Assembly (NCBI GenBank): GCA_945881775.1
Contig: CAMCVE010000005.1
Coordinates: 54,281 to 118,280, forward strand
Origin: Bacteriovorax stolpii
GTDB lineage: Bacteria > Bdellovibrionota > UBA2428
Direction of reading: 5' to 3'
Length of the DNA: 64,000 nucleotides
Shown here: one piece after another, positions 2,875 to 63,952 of the stretch
How the letters are laid out: each line of letters begins with the position of its first letter
How positions within the stretch are numbered: position 1 is the first letter of the stretch
Notes under the pieces: generated by a model
Databases searched by the model: none
Seen by the model: the letters and a program-made list of their open reading frames with translations, nothing else
Told to the model about the DNA's origin: nothing
Position numbers and translations under genes: made by a program

Positions 2875-3174
2875 TCACTCCTTAATAGGATTCTTCTTCG
2901 AATCGTCGATGAGCTTCTTGAGCTCTTTGCCGACTTTAAAGAATGGAAGTTTTTTCTCAGGAACTCCAACCGCAGTTCCGGTCTTTGGATTACGACCGGT
3001 GTAGCTCTTGTATTGCTTCACGTACCAGCTGCCGAATCCTCGAACCTCGATGCGGTCACCGTTCACCAGCGCCTCGAACATCGTGTCGAAACAACAGTTG
3101 ACGACCGCTTCGACCTTCTTCTTGGTGAGGTTCGTCTTCTCGGTGATGAGGTTTACTAGATCGGATTTGGTCAT
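2875..3174 (-). CDS. HU/IHF-family DNA-binding protein (IHF-beta/HU-like)
   Basis: 99 aa. MTKSDLV..ITEKT.LTKK.VE.VV start, then GFGSW...R.GRNP.TG...V beta-arm with a conserved Pro. These are classical HU/IHF signatures. Confidence 0.85.
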   Translation of the reverse strand: MTKSDLVNLITEKTNLTKKKVEAVVNCCFDTMFEALVNGDRIEVRGFGSWYVKQYKSYTGRNPKTGTAVGVPEKKLPFFKVGKELKKLIDDSKKNPIKE

Positions 3175-21385: not shown

Positions 21386-22165
21386 TCAAGCCTCGTCGGA
21401 CACCATCAGGTGCTCTTTCAGCTTGCTGCGCAGGCGCAGGACCGCCTGAGTGTGAAGCTGGGAGACACGACTCTCTGTGACCTCAAGAATGTCGCCGATT
21501 TCTTTCAGGTTGAGATCTTCATAGTAGTAAAGCGAAAGCACCATGCGCTGCTTTTCGGGCAGATCCTCAATCGCTTTGGAAAGCTGTTCCCTCAGTTCGT
21601 TGCCCGCCAGCTGAACCATTGGGTTTGAGTCGCGACCAGCCTCCAAGAGACCCAGCAAACTCTTGCGGTCACCGTTCGAGAACGTGCCTACCTCATCGAG
21701 TGAGAGCAGGGAAACAGACTTGCATTGCTGAAGCGCTGACTGAAATTCTCCAAGCTCCATACCGAGGTCCTTTGCTACCTCGTCTTCACTTGCAGAACGA
21801 CCGAGCTTTTGTTCGAGTTTCTGAAAGGATCTTTCGATGCCCTTGGCTTTTTCGCGCATCGAACGAGGAATCCAGTCTTGCGCGCGCAGCTCGTCTAAAA
21901 TCGCGCCCCGAATGCGAAACTCAGCGTAGGTCTTGAACTTGTTGTCGCGTGCGGGATCGTACTTGTCGATCGCATCCATGAGTCCGATGACACCGGCACT
22001 CATTAGATCGTCGAGCTCGATATTTGCGGGCAGACGCACTGCGATTTTTTGCGCAATAAACTTCACCAGAGGTGAGTACTCCTGAATGATGCTTCGTTTT
22101 TCGTCGTTCGAAAGCTTCTTTGCATTTGCTTTGTACTTACGGATCAATGCTTCGCTTGAGCTCAT
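21386..22165 (-). CDS. fliA: Flagellar sigma factor sigma-28
   Basis: 259 aa. Sigma-70 region 2 (DDLMSAGVIGLMDAIDKYDP), region 3, region 4 HTH (LKEIGDILEVTESRVSQLHTQAVLRLR). Last gene of the flagellar cluster, 4-nt overlap with flhG. Confidence 0.85.
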   Translation of the reverse strand: MSSSEALIRKYKANAKKLSNDEKRSIIQEYSPLVKFIAQKIAVRLPANIELDDLMSAGVIGLMDAIDKYDPARDNKFKTYAEFRIRGAILDELRAQDWIPRSMREKAKGIERSFQKLEQKLGRSASEDEVAKDLGMELGEFQSALQQCKSVSLLSLDEVGTFSNGDRKSLLGLLEAGRDSNPMVQLAGNELREQLSKAIEDLPEKQRMVLSLYYYEDLNLKEIGDILEVTESRVSQLHTQAVLRLRSKLKEHLMVSDEA

Positions 22166-23013
22166 GAAGCCCCCCTCAGAGACACGGTAGCCAGACTCTT
22201 ATTTTGATCTTTCGGCGCGTGAGAACAAGCCAGTAGTTTGTCGGCGATCCGCACCAGGGCCAGAGCGAACGGAGACCGTGGCGAGAGCTGCACAGTGGCA
22301 CGTTGCTGACGCACGGCCTTAAGGACGCAAGGGTCTTCTGGAAGAGATCCTAGGAAATCGATCGAGATGTTCAAGAATTCAGCCGAAACGTCCGTGAGAC
22401 GCTTAAAGGACTCGAGACCGTCTTGAGCCGACTGAGCGCGGTTGATCAGCAATCGAAATTTTTTCTCTTTTCGCTCGAGGGCCATAACCTTAATGAGCGC
22501 GTAGGCGTCGGCAAGCGCGGTAGGCTCCGCATGCGCAACAACAACGATGTCGTGGGCTGAGGCGTTGAAATTCAGAACCATGGATCCAATGCCGGGCGCT
22601 GTATCGTAAATAACGATGTCGTATTCGTGGATAATTTCCTGGAGACGATCCATCAGGGTTCTCTGGGCGAAAGCATCGAGCTCGAGCATTTTTCTGACGC
22701 CACTCGAACTGGGGAGTAAGTCGAAGCCTCCTGGAGTTCGCACGAAAGTGTCCTGGAGTTTCGCGTCACCGAACATAACGTCGTCGAGCGTCTTGTCGAC
22801 TCGACATCCCATGAGGAGATTGGCGTTCGCCAGACCCATGTCGGCATCAATGAGGAGTACCTTAAGCCCCTTCGCCGAGTAGAGCGTCGCCATGTTTGCA
22901 GCAATGTTGGATTTACCAACGCCGCCTTTTCCGCTCGTGATGCTAATGATCCGCGTTTTACGACTGGATTCAGAGAATCCCGCCAATGTCCTTAGTCGAT
23001 CTGCTTGGTCCAC
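22162..23013 (-). CDS. flhG: MinD/ParA-type flagellar number regulator ATPase FlhG (FleN/YlxH)
   Basis: 283 aa. Deviant Walker A SGKGGVGKS. Sits between flhF and fliA. Confidence 0.85.
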   Translation of the reverse strand: MDQADRLRTLAGFSESSRKTRIISITSGKGGVGKSNIAANMATLYSAKGLKVLLIDADMGLANANLLMGCRVDKTLDDVMFGDAKLQDTFVRTPGGFDLLPSSSGVRKMLELDAFAQRTLMDRLQEIIHEYDIVIYDTAPGIGSMVLNFNASAHDIVVVAHAEPTALADAYALIKVMALERKEKKFRLLINRAQSAQDGLESFKRLTDVSAEFLNISIDFLGSLPEDPCVLKAVRQQRATVQLSPRSPFALALVRIADKLLACSHAPKDQNKSLATVSLRGAS

Positions 23014-43730: not shown

Positions 43731-46583
43731 CTAAAGGGACTGCAGTTCGCTGACGGAAAGTCGACCCCACATGGAATCGGCCGACAGGGCTTTGGCAGCC
43801 TCAAAACTTTGGCGCGCTTCCTGAAGCTTTCCTTCCTTGCGCCTTAGCTGCCCCTGGCGAAACAACACCTGCTCTTTGCTAAGTTCAGTTCCCAGCTCTG
43901 CTTTGGAGAGAAGATAGCTGAGCACTGTTGCTGCGCCCGAAAGGTCACCCTGGCGCTCTCGAGCTTCGAAGAGCATAAAGAACGTTTCTGCCGCGGGAGC
44001 ATCCGAGCCTCCCTTTCCTGGAGCCGAGGCCATCCAAGGCCCCACGTAAGACTCCAGCTCAGAGCGAAGACGTCGTTCGTCTTTGTTGAGAAGAAGTACT
44101 TCGAAATAGCGTGTCCATTCTTCAGCGCCGAGAGCCGCGACTTTCTTCAGGGCTGAGAGAGTTTCGGCTTCTTTAACTGTGTTGCGCGAAAGCTTATAGA
44201 AGTCTTTCCAGAGACGCAGGATCTCCGGATCTTTACCGTCGCCTGTGGCCTCTTTCAGATGCTTCTCCACAACGCTCATTTCAATGTCACTAGACAGCAA
44301 CAACTTCAGCTCCACTTTTGAGCGCAGTTTGTTCCAGTCAACGACAGACGGGAGATAGGGTCGATCCTCGTAGGGCCTCATCGCAGCGTTAGACGCGAGA
44401 CCGCGCTCTATATATTCATGAGATTGTTTCCACAATCCAAGCGCGGCGTAGGCCCTGGCGAGTGGCCATATGAGCTCTGGGCGACTTTCGTCTAAGCCGG
44501 GCAGAACTTTTGCTTTTTGGAGAGCAGACATCACTTCGGAGGCTTTTTTCGCGTCAACTTTGGAATCGAGATACCCTGAGAGCGCCGACAAGCGGTACTC
44601 CTGGAGCCATGCAAGCAAGTCGGGCGAGCCCTCAAAGCCCCGCGTCCGGTCGAACTGCTCGTAGGACTGGAAGGGATCTCCGGCCCTCAAGAATCCGTCT
44701 GCGAGCAGCACGCGAACATAGATCTTAAGATCACTCGCAAATGAAGGCTCGAACACCGCGATGCTCTTGTTGAGCAAAACGTCCTCGATGTCTGCTACAA
44801 GACGCGGCCACTCCCCTCGATTGTTCGCATTCATGGCACGTCGGGACTGACGAGCCTTACAAAGTTTGCCTCCGAGATTCTCTCCGGTTCTAAAAACACA
44901 CTCTCTCCAGGCTCCATCGACCTTCTCCTTAGGAGCTCCAGAAATCTCCATCAGATCACCGATACGGTACAAGATCAGACCCAGGTTGGGATGGTCCGAC
45001 GCGAAACTCACAAACGCTCGAAGGTCACTCAACGCTCCCCCAACGTTTCCCATCCTAAGTCGCGCTTCGGCCCTATGTAAGAAAACTTGCGGATATCGAT
45101 TGATCTCGGACGGATACCACGCGCCCTCAAAGGACATTTTCTGCTGCGTCGGAATCAGTGCAAAGGCCTCAGTGTAGTCGGAGACGGCTTCTGCATAGAG
45201 ATTCTGCCGAAGCTGTGCATCCCCGAGACGGAAAGCTGCTAGAGGCAGAAGTCGCCGATCAAAAGCGGCGCTGAGCGGAACATCCTTGCGACTGTTCACA
45301 TAGTCTGCAAAAATTTTGTGCGATTCATCCATAAGACCGAGCCGGTAGTGCGCTTCAGCCCTTAGGAAAGCGAGTCGCTCTTCGGTGGGAGGACTCCAGC
45401 GGAATCTCTGAGCCCAAACGAGCATCGCGGCTGCTGCATAAAATTGCCCATCGGCAAACAGGTCGCGCAACGACTCGAGCATCATATAGTCGGCACCCGC
45501 CTGGTCACTGCCTCCACGACCTGCCACCCGACGAAGGCCCGTGCGCCAGATATCGAGACTTTCGCGGTGCAGATCTCGACTCGCAAGCGATTCGCTTAGC
45601 CTGCGGTAGACGAGTCCTTTGATGGCCCACCACCTTGCGGAATTTACGGGGATCATCTTTTTTACGTTGCCCTTTTCGAGAACGACTATCGACTCCCTGG
45701 CTTTGAGCCATTGTTTGTCTGCGACAAGCTGTCTGAGATAGTTGAGTCCCTCGAGGGCTGCGGCAACATGCTCCTCATCCCCCTTTGGAAGATCTCCTGC
45801 TTCGAAGCGCACGAGCTCAAAGGCTTGCTCCGAAAAACTCAACTCGGCATCTAGCATAGGGAGCGCTAGGAGCGGAGGCACGAGCGGGCGCTGCGAACGC
45901 GGCTTCTTGGTAAAAGAAACATCTCTCTCGCTGAGCGCGACTCGAAAACGATCCAGTTCAGGAGATTCAAAAGAAACCACTTGGCCCATTTGTCCAAGAA
46001 TTTTGTTCCAAGCTTCTTGGTCTTGATAGATATCGAGAACCTTATCCGAAAAATTCACAAGTGGACTGAGTCCATCGTTGTGTGCCGTTTTGGTCTTGGC
46101 TTTTTTACTTCGAGTTGTCTTGGCCGTTTTGCTGCCGCGTTTTTCGCGCACGACAAGCCAGTGATCGACGATCCAGTTCGACTGGGTTCCATAAGAGAGC
46201 GTCTGAAATTCTGAACCGGCACTTGCAACATACGACAAGCGCAACTCAAAGCCTTGAGGTGTCGGATACGCCTTAATGTCGCAGGGTCCCTGAGAGCTAA
46301 AGCGTTCAATGTCGATCCAGGGCTGCGCCTTTGCGGGCTCCGAAAACCCTAGAATCACGTCCGCAACGCTCTTGCCGCCGCACGCCGGGGAGCCCTTTTG
46401 GAAGGTCTCAGTTCGGAGGAAGTCGGGGGCCTCAAGAGGGCCCTTCAGGCGATAGACGCTGGAAACCTTCTCAAGGGATGATGCAGCATAAACATCTGAA
46501 ATTATTGTTAGTATCAGTAAAGTCTTCGTGAAGCACTTAAGAAATGACGCGGCGCGACGATAGGTCTTATATGAAGCGTCCAA
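43731..46583 (-). CDS. Large periplasmic tetratricopeptide-repeat (TPR) protein. The start is uncertain: TTG at 46583 giving a signal peptide, or the ATG ORF start at 46679.
   Basis: Up to 982 aa. A TTG start would give the N-terminus ...KTYRRAASFLKCFTKTLLILTIISDVYA-AS (n-region, h-region, AxA cleavage site). TPR-like helical repeats run throughout. Same strand as flgB and directly upstream of it. Confidence 0.55.
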   Translation of the reverse strand: MDASYKTYRRAASFLKCFTKTLLILTIISDVYAASSLEKVSSVYRLKGPLEAPDFLRTETFQKGSPACGGKSVADVILGFSEPAKAQPWIDIERFSSQGPCDIKAYPTPQGFELRLSYVASAGSEFQTLSYGTQSNWIVDHWLVVREKRGSKTAKTTRSKKAKTKTAHNDGLSPLVNFSDKVLDIYQDQEAWNKILGQMGQVVSFESPELDRFRVALSERDVSFTKKPRSQRPLVPPLLALPMLDAELSFSEQAFELVRFEAGDLPKGDEEHVAAALEGLNYLRQLVADKQWLKARESIVVLEKGNVKKMIPVNSARWWAIKGLVYRRLSESLASRDLHRESLDIWRTGLRRVAGRGGSDQAGADYMMLESLRDLFADGQFYAAAAMLVWAQRFRWSPPTEERLAFLRAEAHYRLGLMDESHKIFADYVNSRKDVPLSAAFDRRLLPLAAFRLGDAQLRQNLYAEAVSDYTEAFALIPTQQKMSFEGAWYPSEINRYPQVFLHRAEARLRMGNVGGALSDLRAFVSFASDHPNLGLILYRIGDLMEISGAPKEKVDGAWRECVFRTGENLGGKLCKARQSRRAMNANNRGEWPRLVADIEDVLLNKSIAVFEPSFASDLKIYVRVLLADGFLRAGDPFQSYEQFDRTRGFEGSPDLLAWLQEYRLSALSGYLDSKVDAKKASEVMSALQKAKVLPGLDESRPELIWPLARAYAALGLWKQSHEYIERGLASNAAMRPYEDRPYLPSVVDWNKLRSKVELKLLLSSDIEMSVVEKHLKEATGDGKDPEILRLWKDFYKLSRNTVKEAETLSALKKVAALGAEEWTRYFEVLLLNKDERRLRSELESYVGPWMASAPGKGGSDAPAAETFFMLFEARERQGDLSGAATVLSYLLSKAELGTELSKEQVLFRQGQLRRKEGKLQEARQSFEAAKALSADSMWGRLSVSELQSL

Positions 46584-47206
46584 AAGGTCCCTGGAGCGAG
46601 CTTTTCGGAAACAAAGAAGACCTGCGTCTTCTGGCCTCGCTAAAAGCACAAAAATGGAAGCCCGAAGCCTGTTATTCATTCCTCAAAGAGCTCCTTAGTC
46701 CTCTCGTGCAATCACTTCATTTTAACAGTCATTCCAGATGGGGCCTACAAATCGAGAGTCAGGAAATTCGCACCCTCTCGATAAAGTTTCTTCAATGGAT
46801 GAATCAAAAAAACGAATGGCCCGCAATCGAAGCCCGGCTCGGCGCCAAAACTGCGTCGGTCTCGCTTCTCGTGTGCCTGAGTCGCTCTTTTGTACGCTAT
46901 CAGGCTCAGAGTGGAACTAAAAAGCAACTCGAGCGTGAGCCATCGTACTCCTCAAAACGAACGGTTCTCGAACTTCCTCAACCTCAAATACTTTCTCACA
47001 TCGGAGGCGCTATCCTCGAAGCCTTCGGCTCTCTGACAGCACAGCTTCCGGATGATTTGCGCCTGCCCTATCAACTTCATCTCGAAGGACTCATCAACGA
47101 AGAGATTTCAGCGCTCCTAGGAATCGACGAGAGCGACCTCTCGACCCGCATTCGTAACGCCAAAAACTATCTGAAGGAACCAGTCACATGGAAAAGAGCC
47201 TCGTAA
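46571..47206 (+). CDS. ECF-type sigma-70 family factor (divergent). Start at ATG 46571; the alternative is 46544.
   Basis: C-terminal region-4 pattern LPDDLRLPYQLHLEGLINEEISALLGIDESDLSTRIRNAKNYLKE, matching L..LP..R.....EGLS..EIA..LG.....VK.R..RA...L. Region 2 is degenerate. Confidence 0.45.
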   Translation: MKRPKGPWSELFGNKEDLRLLASLKAQKWKPEACYSFLKELLSPLVQSLHFNSHSRWGLQIESQEIRTLSIKFLQWMNQKNEWPAIEARLGAKTASVSLLVCLSRSFVRYQAQSGTKKQLEREPSYSSKRTVLELPQPQILSHIGGAILEAFGSLTAQLPDDLRLPYQLHLEGLINEEISALLGIDESDLSTRIRNAKNYLKEPVTWKRAS

Positions 47207-47412
47207 TGACCCTGCCTTTCGATGACCCTTCGTGGGATGGAGTCTTGGAGTCCTGGCTTCAGGACTCTCTCGATCCCAGCATCAAGCAAAGGCTCGCCAC
47301 TCGTCTCGCACTTGACGCAAAATTTCGAGAAGAATTTTGCGAGTGGGTGAAATCCCTTCGAGAGCCCGGGGGATCGAGTGCCGCCCAACGTCGACAAGGA
47401 GCCTCGTCATGA
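47188..47412 (+). CDS. Small anti-sigma-factor-like protein (zinc-less anti-sigma-domain look-alike). Alternative start 47206, which overlaps the sigma stop as TAATG.
   Basis: WLQDSLDPSIKQRLATRLALDAKFREEF aligns with the anti-sigma motif YLDGELSPEERAEFEAHLATCPECRAEL. The His/Cys zinc ligands are replaced by Arg, Asp and Phe. Coupled to both neighbouring genes. Confidence 0.35.
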   Translation: MEKSLVMTLPFDDPSWDGVLESWLQDSLDPSIKQRLATRLALDAKFREEFCEWVKSLREPGGSSAAQRRQGASS

Positions 47413-48011
47413 AAACTCAAATCACCGCTGCTGTGTTTTGGAGACTCTACCAAGAGACCTCTACGAGGCCCGAAGAAGTGCCCGAGATCGAACATATGCG
47501 CCACCGCTGCTTGCTCGGCTTCACTGCTCTGGACGCATCTCTCTTCACATTCTGGGAATCCTCCGTACTGCCGGAATGGGACGAAACGATGAGCCTCGTT
47601 TCGATGGTACTCGATTCTCCGACTTCGTCGGAAACTCTCGAAGAACTTGCGGTGCTCGCAGGACCTTATCTGAAAAAATCCCAGCTCGTTGCCACTTTGA
47701 GATTTCTAGCCCATACAGGCGAGGCAAGCCGCTTCACTCCAAATTTTTTGGACTTTGCTTCGTATCTTCTTCTTCGTCAGCCCAAAAACGAAGAGACCCT
47801 CCAGGCCGTTCGTCTCCTCTGTGAACTCCAAAGCAGTCGCAATTCAGCAGTCCACACAGGGCGTCCCTGGTCCGAGATTCAAGCACATCGAAGCCTCAAG
47901 TTGATCGAAGAAACCGCATTTGTTCTCTCAAAATTGGGAAAAAATTTCAGGGATGCCTTTGGCTCTGATGTCGCAGGCGAGACCAAAAAGAAGTCGGTGC
48001 GTGCCGCATGA
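47409..48011 (+). CDS. Hypothetical soluble protein, third gene of the sigma/anti-sigma unit
   Basis: ATG 47409 overlaps the upstream stop as ATGA. 200 aa, no TM, no known motif. The ORF-track start at 47337 overlaps the upstream gene. Confidence 0.4.
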   Translation: MKTQITAAVFWRLYQETSTRPEEVPEIEHMRHRCLLGFTALDASLFTFWESSVLPEWDETMSLVSMVLDSPTSSETLEELAVLAGPYLKKSQLVATLRFLAHTGEASRFTPNFLDFASYLLLRQPKNEETLQAVRLLCELQSSRNSAVHTGRPWSEIQAHRSLKLIEETAFVLSKLGKNFRDAFGSDVAGETKKKSVRAA

Positions 48012-48107: not shown

Positions 48108-48147
48108 AAAAAAAATCGCCGCGACCCCCCAGGGATCACGGCGACCA
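48108..48147 (-). terminator. Rho-independent terminator of ftsZ (GC-rich stem then T8 on the minus strand), in the convergent gap
   Basis: Minus-strand read GGTCGCCGTGATCCCTGGGGGGTCGCGGCGATTTTTTTT, 22 nt after the ftsZ stop. Confidence 0.65.
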
Positions 48148-48169: not shown

Positions 48170-49549
48170 CTAGCGATGATCAGCAACGCCCTTACGAAGA
48201 AAGGCAGGGATGTCGAGATCATCGGAGCTTGAGGGCTTGAGGCCGAGTTCTTGCGCAATTTTCTTTGCTTGCAGAAGACTCAGGCTCAGCTGCTCGTTGT
48301 CGTTGTCATCTATGCTGTCGGGAACGGGTTGTGAGACCGCGTCCCTCTGAGCTGCGATCAAGGGATTTTCAATCAGCTGAGCTGAAACCTGAGTTTCGTG
48401 CTGAGGAGGCTGCACTACAAAAGGAGCTGCGTCCTGCTCGTATTGAGGAACCTGAGCGTACTGAGGAGCCTGAGTGTACTGAGGAGCTTGTTGCTGTACG
48501 GCCGGACGCTCAAAAAGTCCCTTCACATCGTTTTTGCGCGCTTCAATTGGGAAGCCCGTTGCAACGACAGTCACTTTCACGCTGCCACCAATCGAAGGAT
48601 TGAAAACGCTACCGAAAATAACTTCAGCGTCTTGGTCCGCTTCTTCAGTGACAAGCGAAACGGCTTCGTGGATTTCATGAAGAGTCAGGTCTTCAGGGCC
48701 GGTGATATTGATAATAATGCCGGTTGCTCCCTTGATCGAAACGTCTTCGAGCAGGGGGCTCGAGATTGCCATATGAGCCGCAGTGGCTGCGCGGTTCTCA
48801 CCCTCAGCAACACCAGTTCCCATAAGAGCCAGCCCGCGGTCTGTCATGACAGTTCGCACGTCCGCAAAGTCGAGGTTGATATGGCCCGAGATGTTGATCA
48901 AATCAGAGATACTTTGAACAGCATTCAACAGAACTTCGTCCGCCTTTGAAAAGGCTTCGAGAACCGTGGTCTTCTTGTCGACAATCGACAAAAGTCGTTG
49001 GTTGGGGATTTGGATGAGGGTGTCGACGTTTTCTTTGAGGTTCGTGATGCCCGACAGAGCATGACGACTGCGCTTTGGCGCTTCGAAGATAAACGGCTTG
49101 GTTACAACAGCAACAGTCAGCGCACCCATTTCACGAGCGATCTGCGCAATCACAGGAGCCGCACCCGTTCCAGTGCCACCGCCCATGCCCGCAGTAATGA
49201 AAACCATGTCAGCTCCATCAAGGGCCGCTACGATTTCTTCGCGGCTTTCTTCTGCCGAATTTTTTCCGACCGTCGGGTTCGCGCCAGCGCCGAGACCTTT
49301 TGTGAGCGTAGCTCCCAGCTGGATCTTACGAGGGGCAAGACTCTTAGCGAGAGCCTGACGATCTGTGTTGGCTGCAATAAACTCAACTCCGGTCAGTCCC
49401 GAGCGAATCATGGCGTTCAGAGCATTGCAGCCACCGCCACCCACGCCCACAACTTTGATTCGAGCGCCCAGGACAATTTCTTCCTGAGGCGCGGCTTCGG
49501 CCACTTCATTCAAGATCATGTTTTCATCAATCACAGGTTCAAAAGACAT
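48170..49549 (-). CDS. ftsZ: Cell division GTPase FtsZ. Start at the Met preceded by GGGAGGG; the ORF-track start at 49576 is 9 codons upstream.
   Basis: GGGTGTG tubulin signature ([17 protein letters not shown]), N-terminal [10 protein letters not shown]7 loop NLDFADV, disordered C-terminal linker plus conserved C-terminal peptide (DIPAFLRK). Confidence 0.9.
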
Positions 49550-49586
49550 CTCAATACCCTCCCAGGTTGTTTTCAATTCGAAGACT

Positions 49587-62223: not shown

Positions 62224-62353
62224 AAATTCCCTTCTCTTCCCTGGGGCCTTTTCAGTCAAATATCTCACACGGATTCCGAAGCTTAGGGGCAATCGACACT
62301 TAAGCATTAACCCACTTGCACCGAAAAGAGGTCTAACCATTCAGGGGAGACAC

Positions 62354-63952
62354 ATGGACGTCGCCAAAGTTTTGACACGGAAGGCTCAACTCTCACTCTC
62401 AGTGGTCTTAGGGCTCCTGAGTGCCGAACCATGCTTGGCCGGTGTGTGGATTATTCGTCTCAAAAAAGACAAGACCTCTACATCGCCGCAAGTCCAAAGC
62501 CTGCAAACCCGCATGCGAAATTTCAAGCAATCGCGACTTTCTCGCAAAAAGGGGCTCCTGCTTCCACGCACAGAACTTCTGATCACAGAGGACCTCAGTC
62601 CCGGTGAAGTCGCGATCCTGCGTGCAGATGATTCTGTGGCCTATGTGGAAGAAGACATTCGCTGGCACACCCAAGAGAGCGTCGGCGAATCGAGCTCCTG
62701 GCCAAGCTCATTCTCCCAGGCCCCTTGGCTAAAAGATCTTATGGGATTCTCAAGCGACAATCCCGATCCAGAAATTTCTCCCAACCTCTCACAAACAAGA
62801 AGTGTTGTTGCCGTGATCGACACGGGCTCCCGCTCGGACCATCCGTTCATTTCGGCGGCGCTTGAACCCAACACCTCTGAGCTCAGCGGCAGCTCCTCAC
62901 GCGACGATGATGGAAACGGCTTCGTGGATGACTTCTACGGTGCCAATGCCATCACACGACAAGGCAGCGGCACGGAATCGAATTCTTCTCACGGCACGCA
63001 TGTCGCCGGAATCATCAAAACCATTCGCGACCATGCGATCGGAGATTTTCCCGAAGCCGCACAGGTTTCGATTCTTCCTATCCGCTTTATCGGGGACGAT
63101 GGATCAGGATCGACAGCTTCGGCCGTGATCGCGCTTGAATACGCTCTGGCTCGCGGCGCTCGCGTGGTCAATGCGAGTTGGGGCGCCAAAGGCAACGGCG
63201 CCTATTCGCAGGCTCTCTACGACGCCTTTGCAAAACTCTACGCGGACGACGTGTTCTTTGCTGTGGCGGCGGGCAACGCCGATGGACTGGGCCAGAACAA
63301 CAACGACCTCACGCCCTATTTTCCTGCCAACTACAACATTCCGAGTCTCGTGTCGGTGGCTTCTGTGACACCCTCTTACAGCTCTGCCCTGAATCGCCTT
63401 GTCTCGCTTGATCTATCGCCTTTCTCTAACTACGGAAAAAACACCGTTCAAATCGCAGCGCCCGGAGACTACGCCGACGGCCGGGGCGGAAATCCCGGCA
63501 TTCTGAGCGCCTACTCCGGCTTTGGTCCGTGGGGAAATCTCTACATCAAAAAACAAGGCACCTCGATGGCCTCTCCTGTGATCGCGGGGATCGCGGCCGT
63601 GATGCGCGCCGTGAACCCGTCTCTCACGGCCTTTGAAACAAAAGATCTTCTCATTAAAAGTGCGCGCACCTACTCTCAGCTTTCGAGTTTGCAATCCTCG
63701 GCCATGGTCGATGCCCATGCCGCAATTTCCCTTGCAGAGATCACGGCGAGCCAGGGCCTTCGTCCCCGATTACCCGCCGCTCCAGTCAGGCAAAATTTGG
63801 CAACCTCGCCTCCCGAGCGCGGCGCTGGTTGCGGCACCGTCTCTCCCGTAAAACCCGAGGGGCCGTTTGGCGGAAACTCTCTTGGGCTTGTCACGGCCGG
63901 CTACGCCGTTTGGGCTCTGCTCCAAAAGCGTCGCAAGAAATCGCGCGTCTAG
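62354..63952 (+). CDS. Subtilisin-like serine protease (peptidase S8) with a C-terminal Gly-Gly/TM/basic sorting-signal-like tail
   Basis: Catalytic triad contexts VVAVIDTGS (Asp), HGTHVAGII (His), GTSMASPVIAGIAAV (Ser). C-terminus ...PEGPFGGNSLGLVTAGYAVWALLQKRRKKSRV. Confidence 0.85.
   Translation: MDVAKVLTRKAQLSLSVVLGLLSAEPCLAGVWIIRLKKDKTSTSPQVQSLQTRMRNFKQSRLSRKKGLLLPRTELLITEDLSPGEVAILRADDSVAYVEEDIRWHTQESVGESSSWPSSFSQAPWLKDLMGFSSDNPDPEISPNLSQTRSVVAVIDTGSRSDHPFISAALEPNTSELSGSSSRDDDGNGFVDDFYGANAITRQGSGTESNSSHGTHVAGIIKTIRDHAIGDFPEAAQVSILPIRFIGDDGSGSTASAVIALEYALARGARVVNASWGAKGNGAYSQALYDAFAKLYADDVFFAVAAGNADGLGQNNNDLTPYFPANYNIPSLVSVASVTPSYSSALNRLVSLDLSPFSNYGKNTVQIAAPGDYADGRGGNPGILSAYSGFGPWGNLYIKKQGTSMASPVIAGIAAVMRAVNPSLTAFETKDLLIKSARTYSQLSSLQSSAMVDAHAAISLAEITASQGLRPRLPAAPVRQNLATSPPERGAGCGTVSPVKPEGPFGGNSLGLVTAGYAVWALLQKRRKKSRV

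Follow-up and report, generated by a model that had tools for sequence, protein, structure and literature searches.

Cytoplasmic pairs of an extracytoplasmic function (ECF) sigma factor and its anti-sigma factor, of the SigR-RsrA, SigH-RshA and sigmaE-ChrR type, combine a two-domain sigma protein of ~200 aa with a coupled neighbour, a small soluble helical protein that has no membrane segment. Here we describe a trio of overlapping open reading frames (ORFs) that shares this layout, ORF1-ORF2-ORF3, in DNA from Bacteriovorax stolpii (Bdellovibrionota; assembly GCA_945881775.1, contig CAMCVE010000005.1, positions 54,281 to 118,280 of the forward strand); the window below means this whole stretch of 64,000 nucleotides. 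The trio encodes a sigma-like protein, a small partner and a protein of HEPN fold. In contrast to the known pairs it has no HxxxCxxC zinc site, no anti-sigma profile match and no sigma-2 domain that can be detected in the sequence, whilst it does have an obligatory HEPN third gene and a promoter of the FliA type rather than a self-recognised one.

Other described systems share further features with the trio. The alphaproteobacterial general stress response (EcfG-NepR-PhyR) likewise has three soluble components, an anti-sigma factor of 60-70 aa and a fold that resembles a sigma factor but is degenerate in its features for reading DNA. However, the trio has no receiver domain or phosphorylation module, its third component is of HEPN fold and its sequence similarity to NepR and PhyR does not rise above noise. 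The type III CRISPR-associated CalpL-CalpT-CalpS system (protease, anti-sigma factor and ECF-like sigma factor) is also tripartite, and couples an ECF-like sigma factor and its anti-sigma factor to proteolysis and to a domain family of the nucleic-acid-defence type, but the trio sits in a housekeeping chromosomal setting, apparently under flagellar control, with no CRISPR, SAVED or Lon context. Where ClpXP controls ECF systems (the RseA fragment ending in VAA; sigma-AntA), the substrate carries Ala-Ala-COOH on a flexible tail, as ORF3 does. In the trio, however, this tag is on a separate HEPN protein and not on the sigma factor or on a piece of an anti-sigma factor that membrane proteolysis exposes.

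Of these systems, the cytoplasmic ECF sigma/anti-sigma pairs are the nearest parallel to the way the trio would work, with a third protein as accessory and a ClpXP step added. Our preferred reading, which we put forward tentatively, is that it may well form a lineage-specific, FliA-timed and proteolysis-gated switch of the sigma/anti-sigma type with a HEPN protein as its third component. The switch between attack and growth phase in Bdellovibrio-like bacteria is poorly understood beyond FliA, and the trio is a testable candidate for a second regulatory tier. No sigma-HEPN operon is described in the literature that we searched, and in the trio a HEPN protein would for the first time be joined obligately to two proteins of the sigma/anti-sigma type in a chromosomal housekeeping context rather than one of defence. 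Its interest would rise further if the FliA-timed, proteolysis-gated switch or an RNase activity proved true.

Gene structure and conservation of the trio

The ORF list of the window contains three overlapping ORFs on the + strand between a flagellar cluster and a cell-division cluster:

46571-47206, + strand: ORF1 (longest form from 46544), 211 aa, divergent ECF-type sigma-like protein
47188/47206-47412, + strand: ORF2, 74 aa, or 68 aa from the ATG at 47206, small soluble partner and putative anti-sigma factor
47409-48011, + strand: ORF3, 200 aa, HEPN fold with a disordered C-terminal tail

An earlier note on this DNA, made from the sequence alone, had described three plus-strand ORFs chained by TAATG and ATGA overlaps, and these junctions are present as described. 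At the first, the TAA at 47204-47206 gives its last A to the ATG at 47206-47208, and reading ORF2 from 47188 instead gives a 19-nt overlap with ORF1; at the second, the ATG at 47409-47411 overlaps the TGA at 47410-47412. The three genes are real and translationally coupled.

Relatives were taken from genome, metagenome and assembly collections, in which ~25 related loci were readable. ORF1 has 11 close homologues, and 41 by profile search, all from metagenome-assembled genomes of the Bdellovibrionota/Bacteriovoracaceae. A word-indexed search for ORF3 found 16 homologues, whilst an exhaustive search returned just 30 representatives among 1.84 billion, every one of them a single-domain protein of 160-215 aa. 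In every locus with enough sequence (~25 loci) the order is ORF1-ORF2-ORF3 with overlaps of 1-19 nt, which is the co-conservation in relatives that the earlier note had looked to. This order is kept down to 27-35% ORF1 identity, and also where the flanks differ; for example, RmuC is the upstream neighbour in locus L004, and the downstream ftsZ has been lost from L013. ORF2 directly follows ORF1 with an overlapping stop and start in all loci. The third gene encodes 170-205 aa and is recognisable as ORF3 except in the most divergent loci, L025 and L026, where a gene for 174-175 aa with a 4-nt overlap takes the third place.

That the trio consists of functionally unrelated neighbours on a shared transcript is highly improbable, given that order, spacing and the 1-19-nt overlaps are invariant in ~25 loci to 27% identity with differing flanks; chance co-transcription is effectively excluded by this conservation. 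The suggestion of a lineage-specific regulatory module holds, since the three genes have been kept together across a deep but narrow lineage. A split anti-sigma factor with a partner, as also proposed in the earlier note, finds no such backing, there being no ORF1-ORF2 or ORF2-ORF3 fusion among 41 ORF1 and 30-44 ORF3 relatives. Judged by these sequence comparisons, the trio is a vertically inherited operon that appears restricted to uncultured Bdellovibrionota.

A Bacteriovoracaceae-type clade (L004-L010, L022, L028 and L030) has rmuC upstream in place of the block formed by a tetratricopeptide repeat (TPR) gene and flagellar genes. In this clade ftsZ is still found within ~2.3 kb and the FliA-type promoter is retained. 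Its ORF3 is shorter (~172 aa), with the Rx4H motif of HEPN RNases lost (LSRKMIG).

A sigma-28-type promoter upstream of ORF1

In Bdellovibrio bacteriovorus an attack-phase promoter consensus, TTAAG-N16-CCGATA, has been derived experimentally and attributed to FliA/sigma-28; it is present in 92 of 140 mapped promoters (PMC3627812). The following features of the window relate to this consensus:

46537-46562, + strand: sigma-28 (FliA)-type promoter, with -35 element TTAAG at 46537-46541, a 15-nt spacer and -10 element ACGATA at 46557-46562
21386-22165, - strand: fliA (sigma-28), with Pfam Sigma70_r2, r3 and r4 above threshold, the presumed sigma factor for the trio promoter

The -10 element in the window ends 8 nt before the ORF1 ATG. 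In an alignment of the upstream regions, CGA(T/A)A is invariant at a distance of 9-13 nt from the ATG, even in the clade whose upstream gene is not the same. Moreover, all 23 loci that were scanned contain a FliA-type motif with 0-3 mismatches, the best match falling at the same place each time, and matches to the consensus are exact in L014, L023 and L027. The distance from the end of the -10 element to the in-frame ATG is 7-9 nt in these loci and mostly exactly 8. Our reading is that the trio is probably a FliA-dependent operon, tied to the flagellar and attack-phase programme. The predicted transcription start suggests that its mRNA is leaderless or nearly so, because with the usual distances from -10 element to start the fixed 8-nt gap, followed by an ATG start in every locus, would leave little or no leader. 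The earlier note had suggested looking upstream for an ECF-sigma self-promoter motif; it was sought, and the promoter is of the sigma-28 type instead. A scan for sigma-70 promoters gave no site. That CGATAGG serves as a Shine-Dalgarno sequence is a minor alternative to its reading as a FliA -10 element, and a 5′ hairpin at the same place was rejected as its stems are not conserved.

The promoter also bears on where ORF1 starts. The N-termini of homologues line up with 46571, the second ATG in frame (MKRPKGPW...), and the conserved -10 element (46557-46562) lies inside the 9 extra upstream codons of the form that starts at 46544. Therefore, the ORF of 220 aa from 46544 that was first proposed is real, but its start is corrected to 46571, which gives 211 aa.

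Within the promoter spacer (46542-46556), the main-clade loci share a conserved (T/A)(G/A)ACGC block at a fixed position. This block may be an extension of the -35 element (TTAAGTTTT like TAAAGTTT), an operator or a trace of antisense TPR coding.

Predicted folds and a proposed switch

ORF1 is laid out as a sigma-2-like domain (~aa 15-114), a conserved linker (115-137) and a sigma-4-like helix-turn-helix (HTH) domain (~aa 138-202). Its AlphaFold2 model, built on 31 sequences, is all-helical with a mean pLDDT (predicted local distance difference test) of 76.5. An N-terminal bundle of helices 15-26, 31-50, 63-79, 82-91 and 99-114 is followed by a low-confidence linker (118-130) and the C-terminal HTH domain (138-202), an order of helices that fits the ECF topology. 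Nearly all of the top 20 Foldseek matches in the PDB are sigma factors, mostly ECF (AlgU, SigH, SigK, sigmaE, SigL, EcfG and SigW among them), over 190-200 columns and at probabilities of 0.9-0.98, but with E values of only ~1e-2 and TM-scores of 0.25-0.33; the low TM-scores are as expected from two mobile domains. The model thus points to a sigma-70 fold of ECF-like form for ORF1, on which the earlier note had staked its reading.

At the level of sequence, Pfam Sigma70_r4_2 scores 23.4 bits against ORF1 (cut-off 25.7, E 4.8e-5; aa 159-207 of the 220-aa form) and matches 16 of 31 relatives at E<=1. The NCBIfam profile TIGR02937 covers the C-terminal part alone, with 18 bits against a cut-off of 42.9, the ORF1 family profile finds sigmaE region 4 alone in the PDB (E 0.007), and PhyR_sigma-like gives weak matches in 3 of 31 relatives. 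The region 4 HTH is therefore clear at fold level and sub-threshold in Pfam, whilst the sigma-2 domain is seen as a fold-level resemblance to ECF sigmas only. Of the "good" region-4 match and divergent region 2 claimed before, the former falls short of the profile threshold and the latter stands at fold level only. By its model, ORF1 appears to have an ECF-type fold and is a putative sigma factor at most; it illustrates to what extent an ECF-type sigma can diverge until profiles no longer recognise it. By their descriptions, bd0743 and bd0881, which are known RpoE-like sigmas of Bdellovibrio, and bd3314 are unrelated to the ORF1 family.

Linkers of ECF sigma factors are usually not conserved. 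In ORF1 the linker at aa 118-130 (~46922-46960) reads E-x-S-Y-S-x-x-(R/K)-S-L-L, with E123, S125 and S127 invariant, and this motif is conserved despite the very low confidence of the model there. Such conservation is unusual for an ECF linker, and it could therefore be a binding or modification site. A loop, LHF(N/S)xxxRWG, is also nearly invariant.

ORF2 (68-74 aa, pI 4.9) is soluble and contains no hydrophobic segment, in line with the lack of a transmembrane tail in the earlier note. Its block F-R-E-x-F-C-E-W-x-K-x-x-R-(E/D)-P is invariant and has a helix-like periodic pattern in the alignment. The earlier note had further seen in ORF2 a look-alike of the ZAS anti-sigma template, a claim that we do not uphold: profile searches of Pfam, NCBIfam and the PDB lend it no support, and the positions of the HxxxCxxC zinc site are occupied by R/T, D/N and F and are not conserved. 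We therefore call ORF2 a putative anti-sigma factor by its position, size, solubility, coupling to a sigma-like gene and invariant helix. The single invariant cysteine, C45 of FCEW (~47338-47340), is found in 11 of 11 loci, and C34 of ORF3, in RHRCLLG, is nearly invariant. A thiol-based input via ORF2 C45 or ORF3 C34 is conceivable.

For ORF3 the earlier note had found no known domain. This is true of the sequence, since searches of Pfam, NCBIfam and PDB profiles gave none, but the model (44-sequence alignment, pLDDT 93, predicted TM-score 0.87) reveals a HEPN protein at fold level. It has helices at 2-16, 26-69, 73-84, 90-101, 113-123, 128-148, 156-174 and 178-184 and a tail that is disordered from ~185; the fold is an up-down bundle of four helices, the second and third of which are separated by an insert. 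Structures with this fold include TTHA0636, the HEPN domain of sacsin, YutE, AbiA, HI0074 and Csm6. The window ORF3 has no Pfam match, HEPN_Swt1 is matched by 1 of 44 relatives (E 0.031), and a short-motif search of the PDB around RNSAVH returned nothing. A match to the protease adaptor RcdA in NCBIfam (E 0.047) was treated as noise. Two motifs are of interest:

47838-47855, + strand: Rx4H motif R144-N-S-A-V-H149, HEPN RNase active-site motif with a polar residue after the R
48003-48008, + strand: C-terminal Ala-Ala (...VRAA-stop), an ssrA-like, ClpXP-type putative degron

Ala-Ala-COOH is a key determinant of ssrA-type ClpXP degrons. Of 44 ORF3 relatives, 40 end in AA and 3 in VA, whilst one sequence is truncated; the L004-type clade alone departs from this pattern (AAGG, ATG, SIA). 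The last 10 residues have a mean pLDDT of 52, and confidence is low over the last 10-20. In sigma-AntA, where Ala-Ala is conserved in 67 of 71 orthologues, the same terminus led to the proof that this ECF sigma factor is a direct ClpXP substrate (PMC7142297). In the model, the Rx4H motif is found where helix 128-148 passes into the next loop, which is exactly the place described for the HEPN catalytic motif, at the end of helix 3 or in the loop that follows (PMC3710099). Among the 44 relatives, 26 have RNxxxH and 30 have R-x4-H, so conservation is higher at the AA terminus than at the catalytic residues; Rx4H has disappeared from several divergent lineages, the L004-type clade in its entirety among them, although they have kept the gene.

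The HEPN fold, Rx4H and Ala-Ala open both a proteolysis step and another explanation, in which the trio is a domesticated tripartite module like those of toxin-antitoxin (TA) systems, with ORF1 as the regulator (sigma-4/HTH), ORF2 as the antitoxin and ORF3 as a HEPN RNase toxin, and in which growth arrest or RNA cleavage would be linked to the non-replicative attack phase. The best fold matches of ORF3 are indeed the HEPN toxins of HEPN-MNT systems, and RNxxxH is intact in the window copy. ORF2 is small and acidic (pI 4.9), and omega-epsilon-zeta and paaR-paaA-parE modules have a similar order and translational coupling. HEPN-SIGMA-HTH domain fusions are also on record (PMC3710099, table). However, compared with HEPN-MNT (HepT-MntA, type VII) systems the trio has no MNT neighbour, the genes that adjoin ORF3 being ORF2 (helical-looking, with no NT profile) and ftsZ. 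Moreover, ORF3 has no Tyr after the His and ~70 extra N-terminal residues, its motif is lost in several clades, and its locus is a conserved chromosomal one. The single-copy, syntenic locus with vertical-looking inheritance over deep divergence also speaks against a TA-like module, as do the absence of PADLOC matches to defence or TA profiles for the trio proteins or family alignments and of relatives on viral contigs. About one third of lineages lack Rx4H yet keep the whole trio, the putative degron is on the "toxin" and not on the antitoxin, and the promoter is of the FliA type and not an autoregulated sigma-70 operator. We consider a TA-like module of this kind unlikely. Given that the AA tail outlasts the catalytic motif and that the module is syntenic and single-copy, the evidence favours a regulatory or binding role of ORF3 over that of a selfish toxin.

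In the proteolysis-gated switch that we prefer, FliA would turn the trio on together with the flagellar and attack-phase programme. ORF2 would then bind and sequester ORF1 in the manner of an anti-sigma factor, and each side would contribute an invariant helix to the contact, FRExFCEWxKxxR on ORF2 and LPYQLHLEGL on ORF1. ORF3 would be the third partner, its abundance set by ClpXP-type proteolysis through the Ala-Ala tail. Such a switch would be time-limited, as its state would decay once FliA-dependent synthesis ends. ORF1 may bind RNA polymerase, and where RNxxxH/Rx4H is intact, as in most lineages, ORF3 may also cleave RNA.

Several observations weigh against this scheme. Sigma70_r2 matches none of the 31 ORF1 family members, and by our reading of the alignment these do not share a Q-E pair in region 2.2. 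No other part of ORF1 is as poorly conserved as the putative -35 recognition helix (mean top-residue frequency 0.48), which is neutral to acidic in many members (net charge -4 to +3), which is odd for orthologous sigma factors that read DNA. For ORF2, none of zf-HC2, RseA_N, RskA, NepR and FlgM matched any of 8 members at E<=10. No promoter emerged as a candidate target of ORF1. The upstream motif of the trio occurs at a single site within the window, with no extra copies to signal a regulon, and the operon's own promoter looks FliA-dependent and not autoregulated.

Some of these points would fit a pseudo-sigma factor, that is, a mimic like the sigma-like domain of PhyR, which would switch partners with ORF2 and ORF3 and so titrate the regulator of another sigma factor, for example in the FliA/anti-FliA axis. 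The often acidic, variable recognition helix and the lack of a region-2 profile signal agree with such a role. The helix LPYQLHLEGL, which stands at the start of the HTH, is nearly invariant and is not the one that contacts DNA, suggesting a protein-protein surface, and expression under FliA would make sense for a protein that feeds back on FliA. On the other hand, the ECF topology is complete, and the recognition helix of the window clade (STRIRNAK) is comparable to RSRIFRAR of sigmaE, with the basic residues R, R and K kept. Moreover, a receiver or any other domain for signalling is absent, and the trio has no further sigma gene as a neighbour. On present evidence we doubt that ORF1 is a mimic of this type.

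A bolder version of the preferred switch would make the trio a new kind of developmental switch in predatory Bdellovibrionota, in which a leaderless operon started by FliA acts as a self-limiting timer made of a sigma-like protein, its inhibitor and a ClpXP-labile HEPN RNase. Such a timer would link the attack phase, in which cells are flagellated and do not replicate, to their return to growth and division, and the HEPN protein would be both the proteolytic "fuse" of the sigma/anti-sigma complex and an RNA-cleaving effector. We regard this as improbable, and more so than either the TA-like module or the mimic.

Flanking genes and other sigma-28 sites

The placement of the trio between a flagellar TPR gene and ftsZ, as the earlier note had it, is confirmed by the ORF list and Pfam. 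The flanking features are as follows:

43731-46679, - strand: TPR gene, 982 aa, divergent from the trio, heading a flgB-flgC-fliE-fliF operon, with Pfam TPR matches
48114-48146, - strand: strong hairpin terminator between ORF3 and ftsZ, with its T-run on the ftsZ strand
48170-49576, - strand: ftsZ, convergent with the trio and followed by ftsA and ftsQ

In the main clade this synteny is shared, with TPR divergent from the trio and a convergent ftsZ-ftsA-ftsQ-ddl downstream, and the block fliH-fliG-fliF-fliE-flgC-flgB is usually found behind the TPR gene. TPR-trio synteny holds in L011-L014.

The longest ORF of the TPR gene, starting at 46679 on the - strand, overlaps the first 36 codons of ORF1 (46571-46679) head-to-head, and in every relative this minus-strand frame continues past the ORF1 start without a stop. 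In 5 of 5 genomes (the window, L003 and L011-L013) there is no canonical start codon before the signal-anchor-like segment of the TPR protein (KTLLILTIISDVYA). A basic N-terminal TPR tail of ~46 aa and a conserved 5′-5′ overlap of the two genes therefore seem real, and each gene's promoter would then lie within the coding region of the other. Public gene calls shorten ORF1 to its C-terminal 135 aa (P0005, the window ORF1) or 141 aa (P0057, from L014), apparently because the longest TPR ORF overlaps the 5′ end of ORF1 on the other strand; its conserved N-terminal domain is therefore missing from databases, and the family is effectively invisible in current annotation. P0006, P0009 and P0010 are likewise among the shortened public calls of the sigma-like gene.

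The stem of the terminator is 15 bp long with 9 G-C pairs (terminator scan). No Rfam family was found, a weak ncS54 match at the terminator being taken as noise.

Elsewhere in the window, the gene before fliA and further sites of the FliA consensus (<=1 mismatch) were located:

22162-23013, - strand: flhG/MinD-like ATPase gene, preceding fliA
62300-62326, + strand: FliA-consensus site
22865-22839, - strand: FliA-consensus site
3342-3317, - strand: FliA-consensus site
33164-33138, - strand: FliA-consensus site
16882-16856, - strand: FliA-consensus site

The window contains 6 TTAAG-N15/16-CCGATA sites at <=1 mismatch, against 1.34 expected. One site is found within the flhG-like gene just upstream of fliA, another 27 nt upstream of a subtilase gene (62354-63952), and a third 143 nt upstream of the HU gene (2875-3174, - strand).

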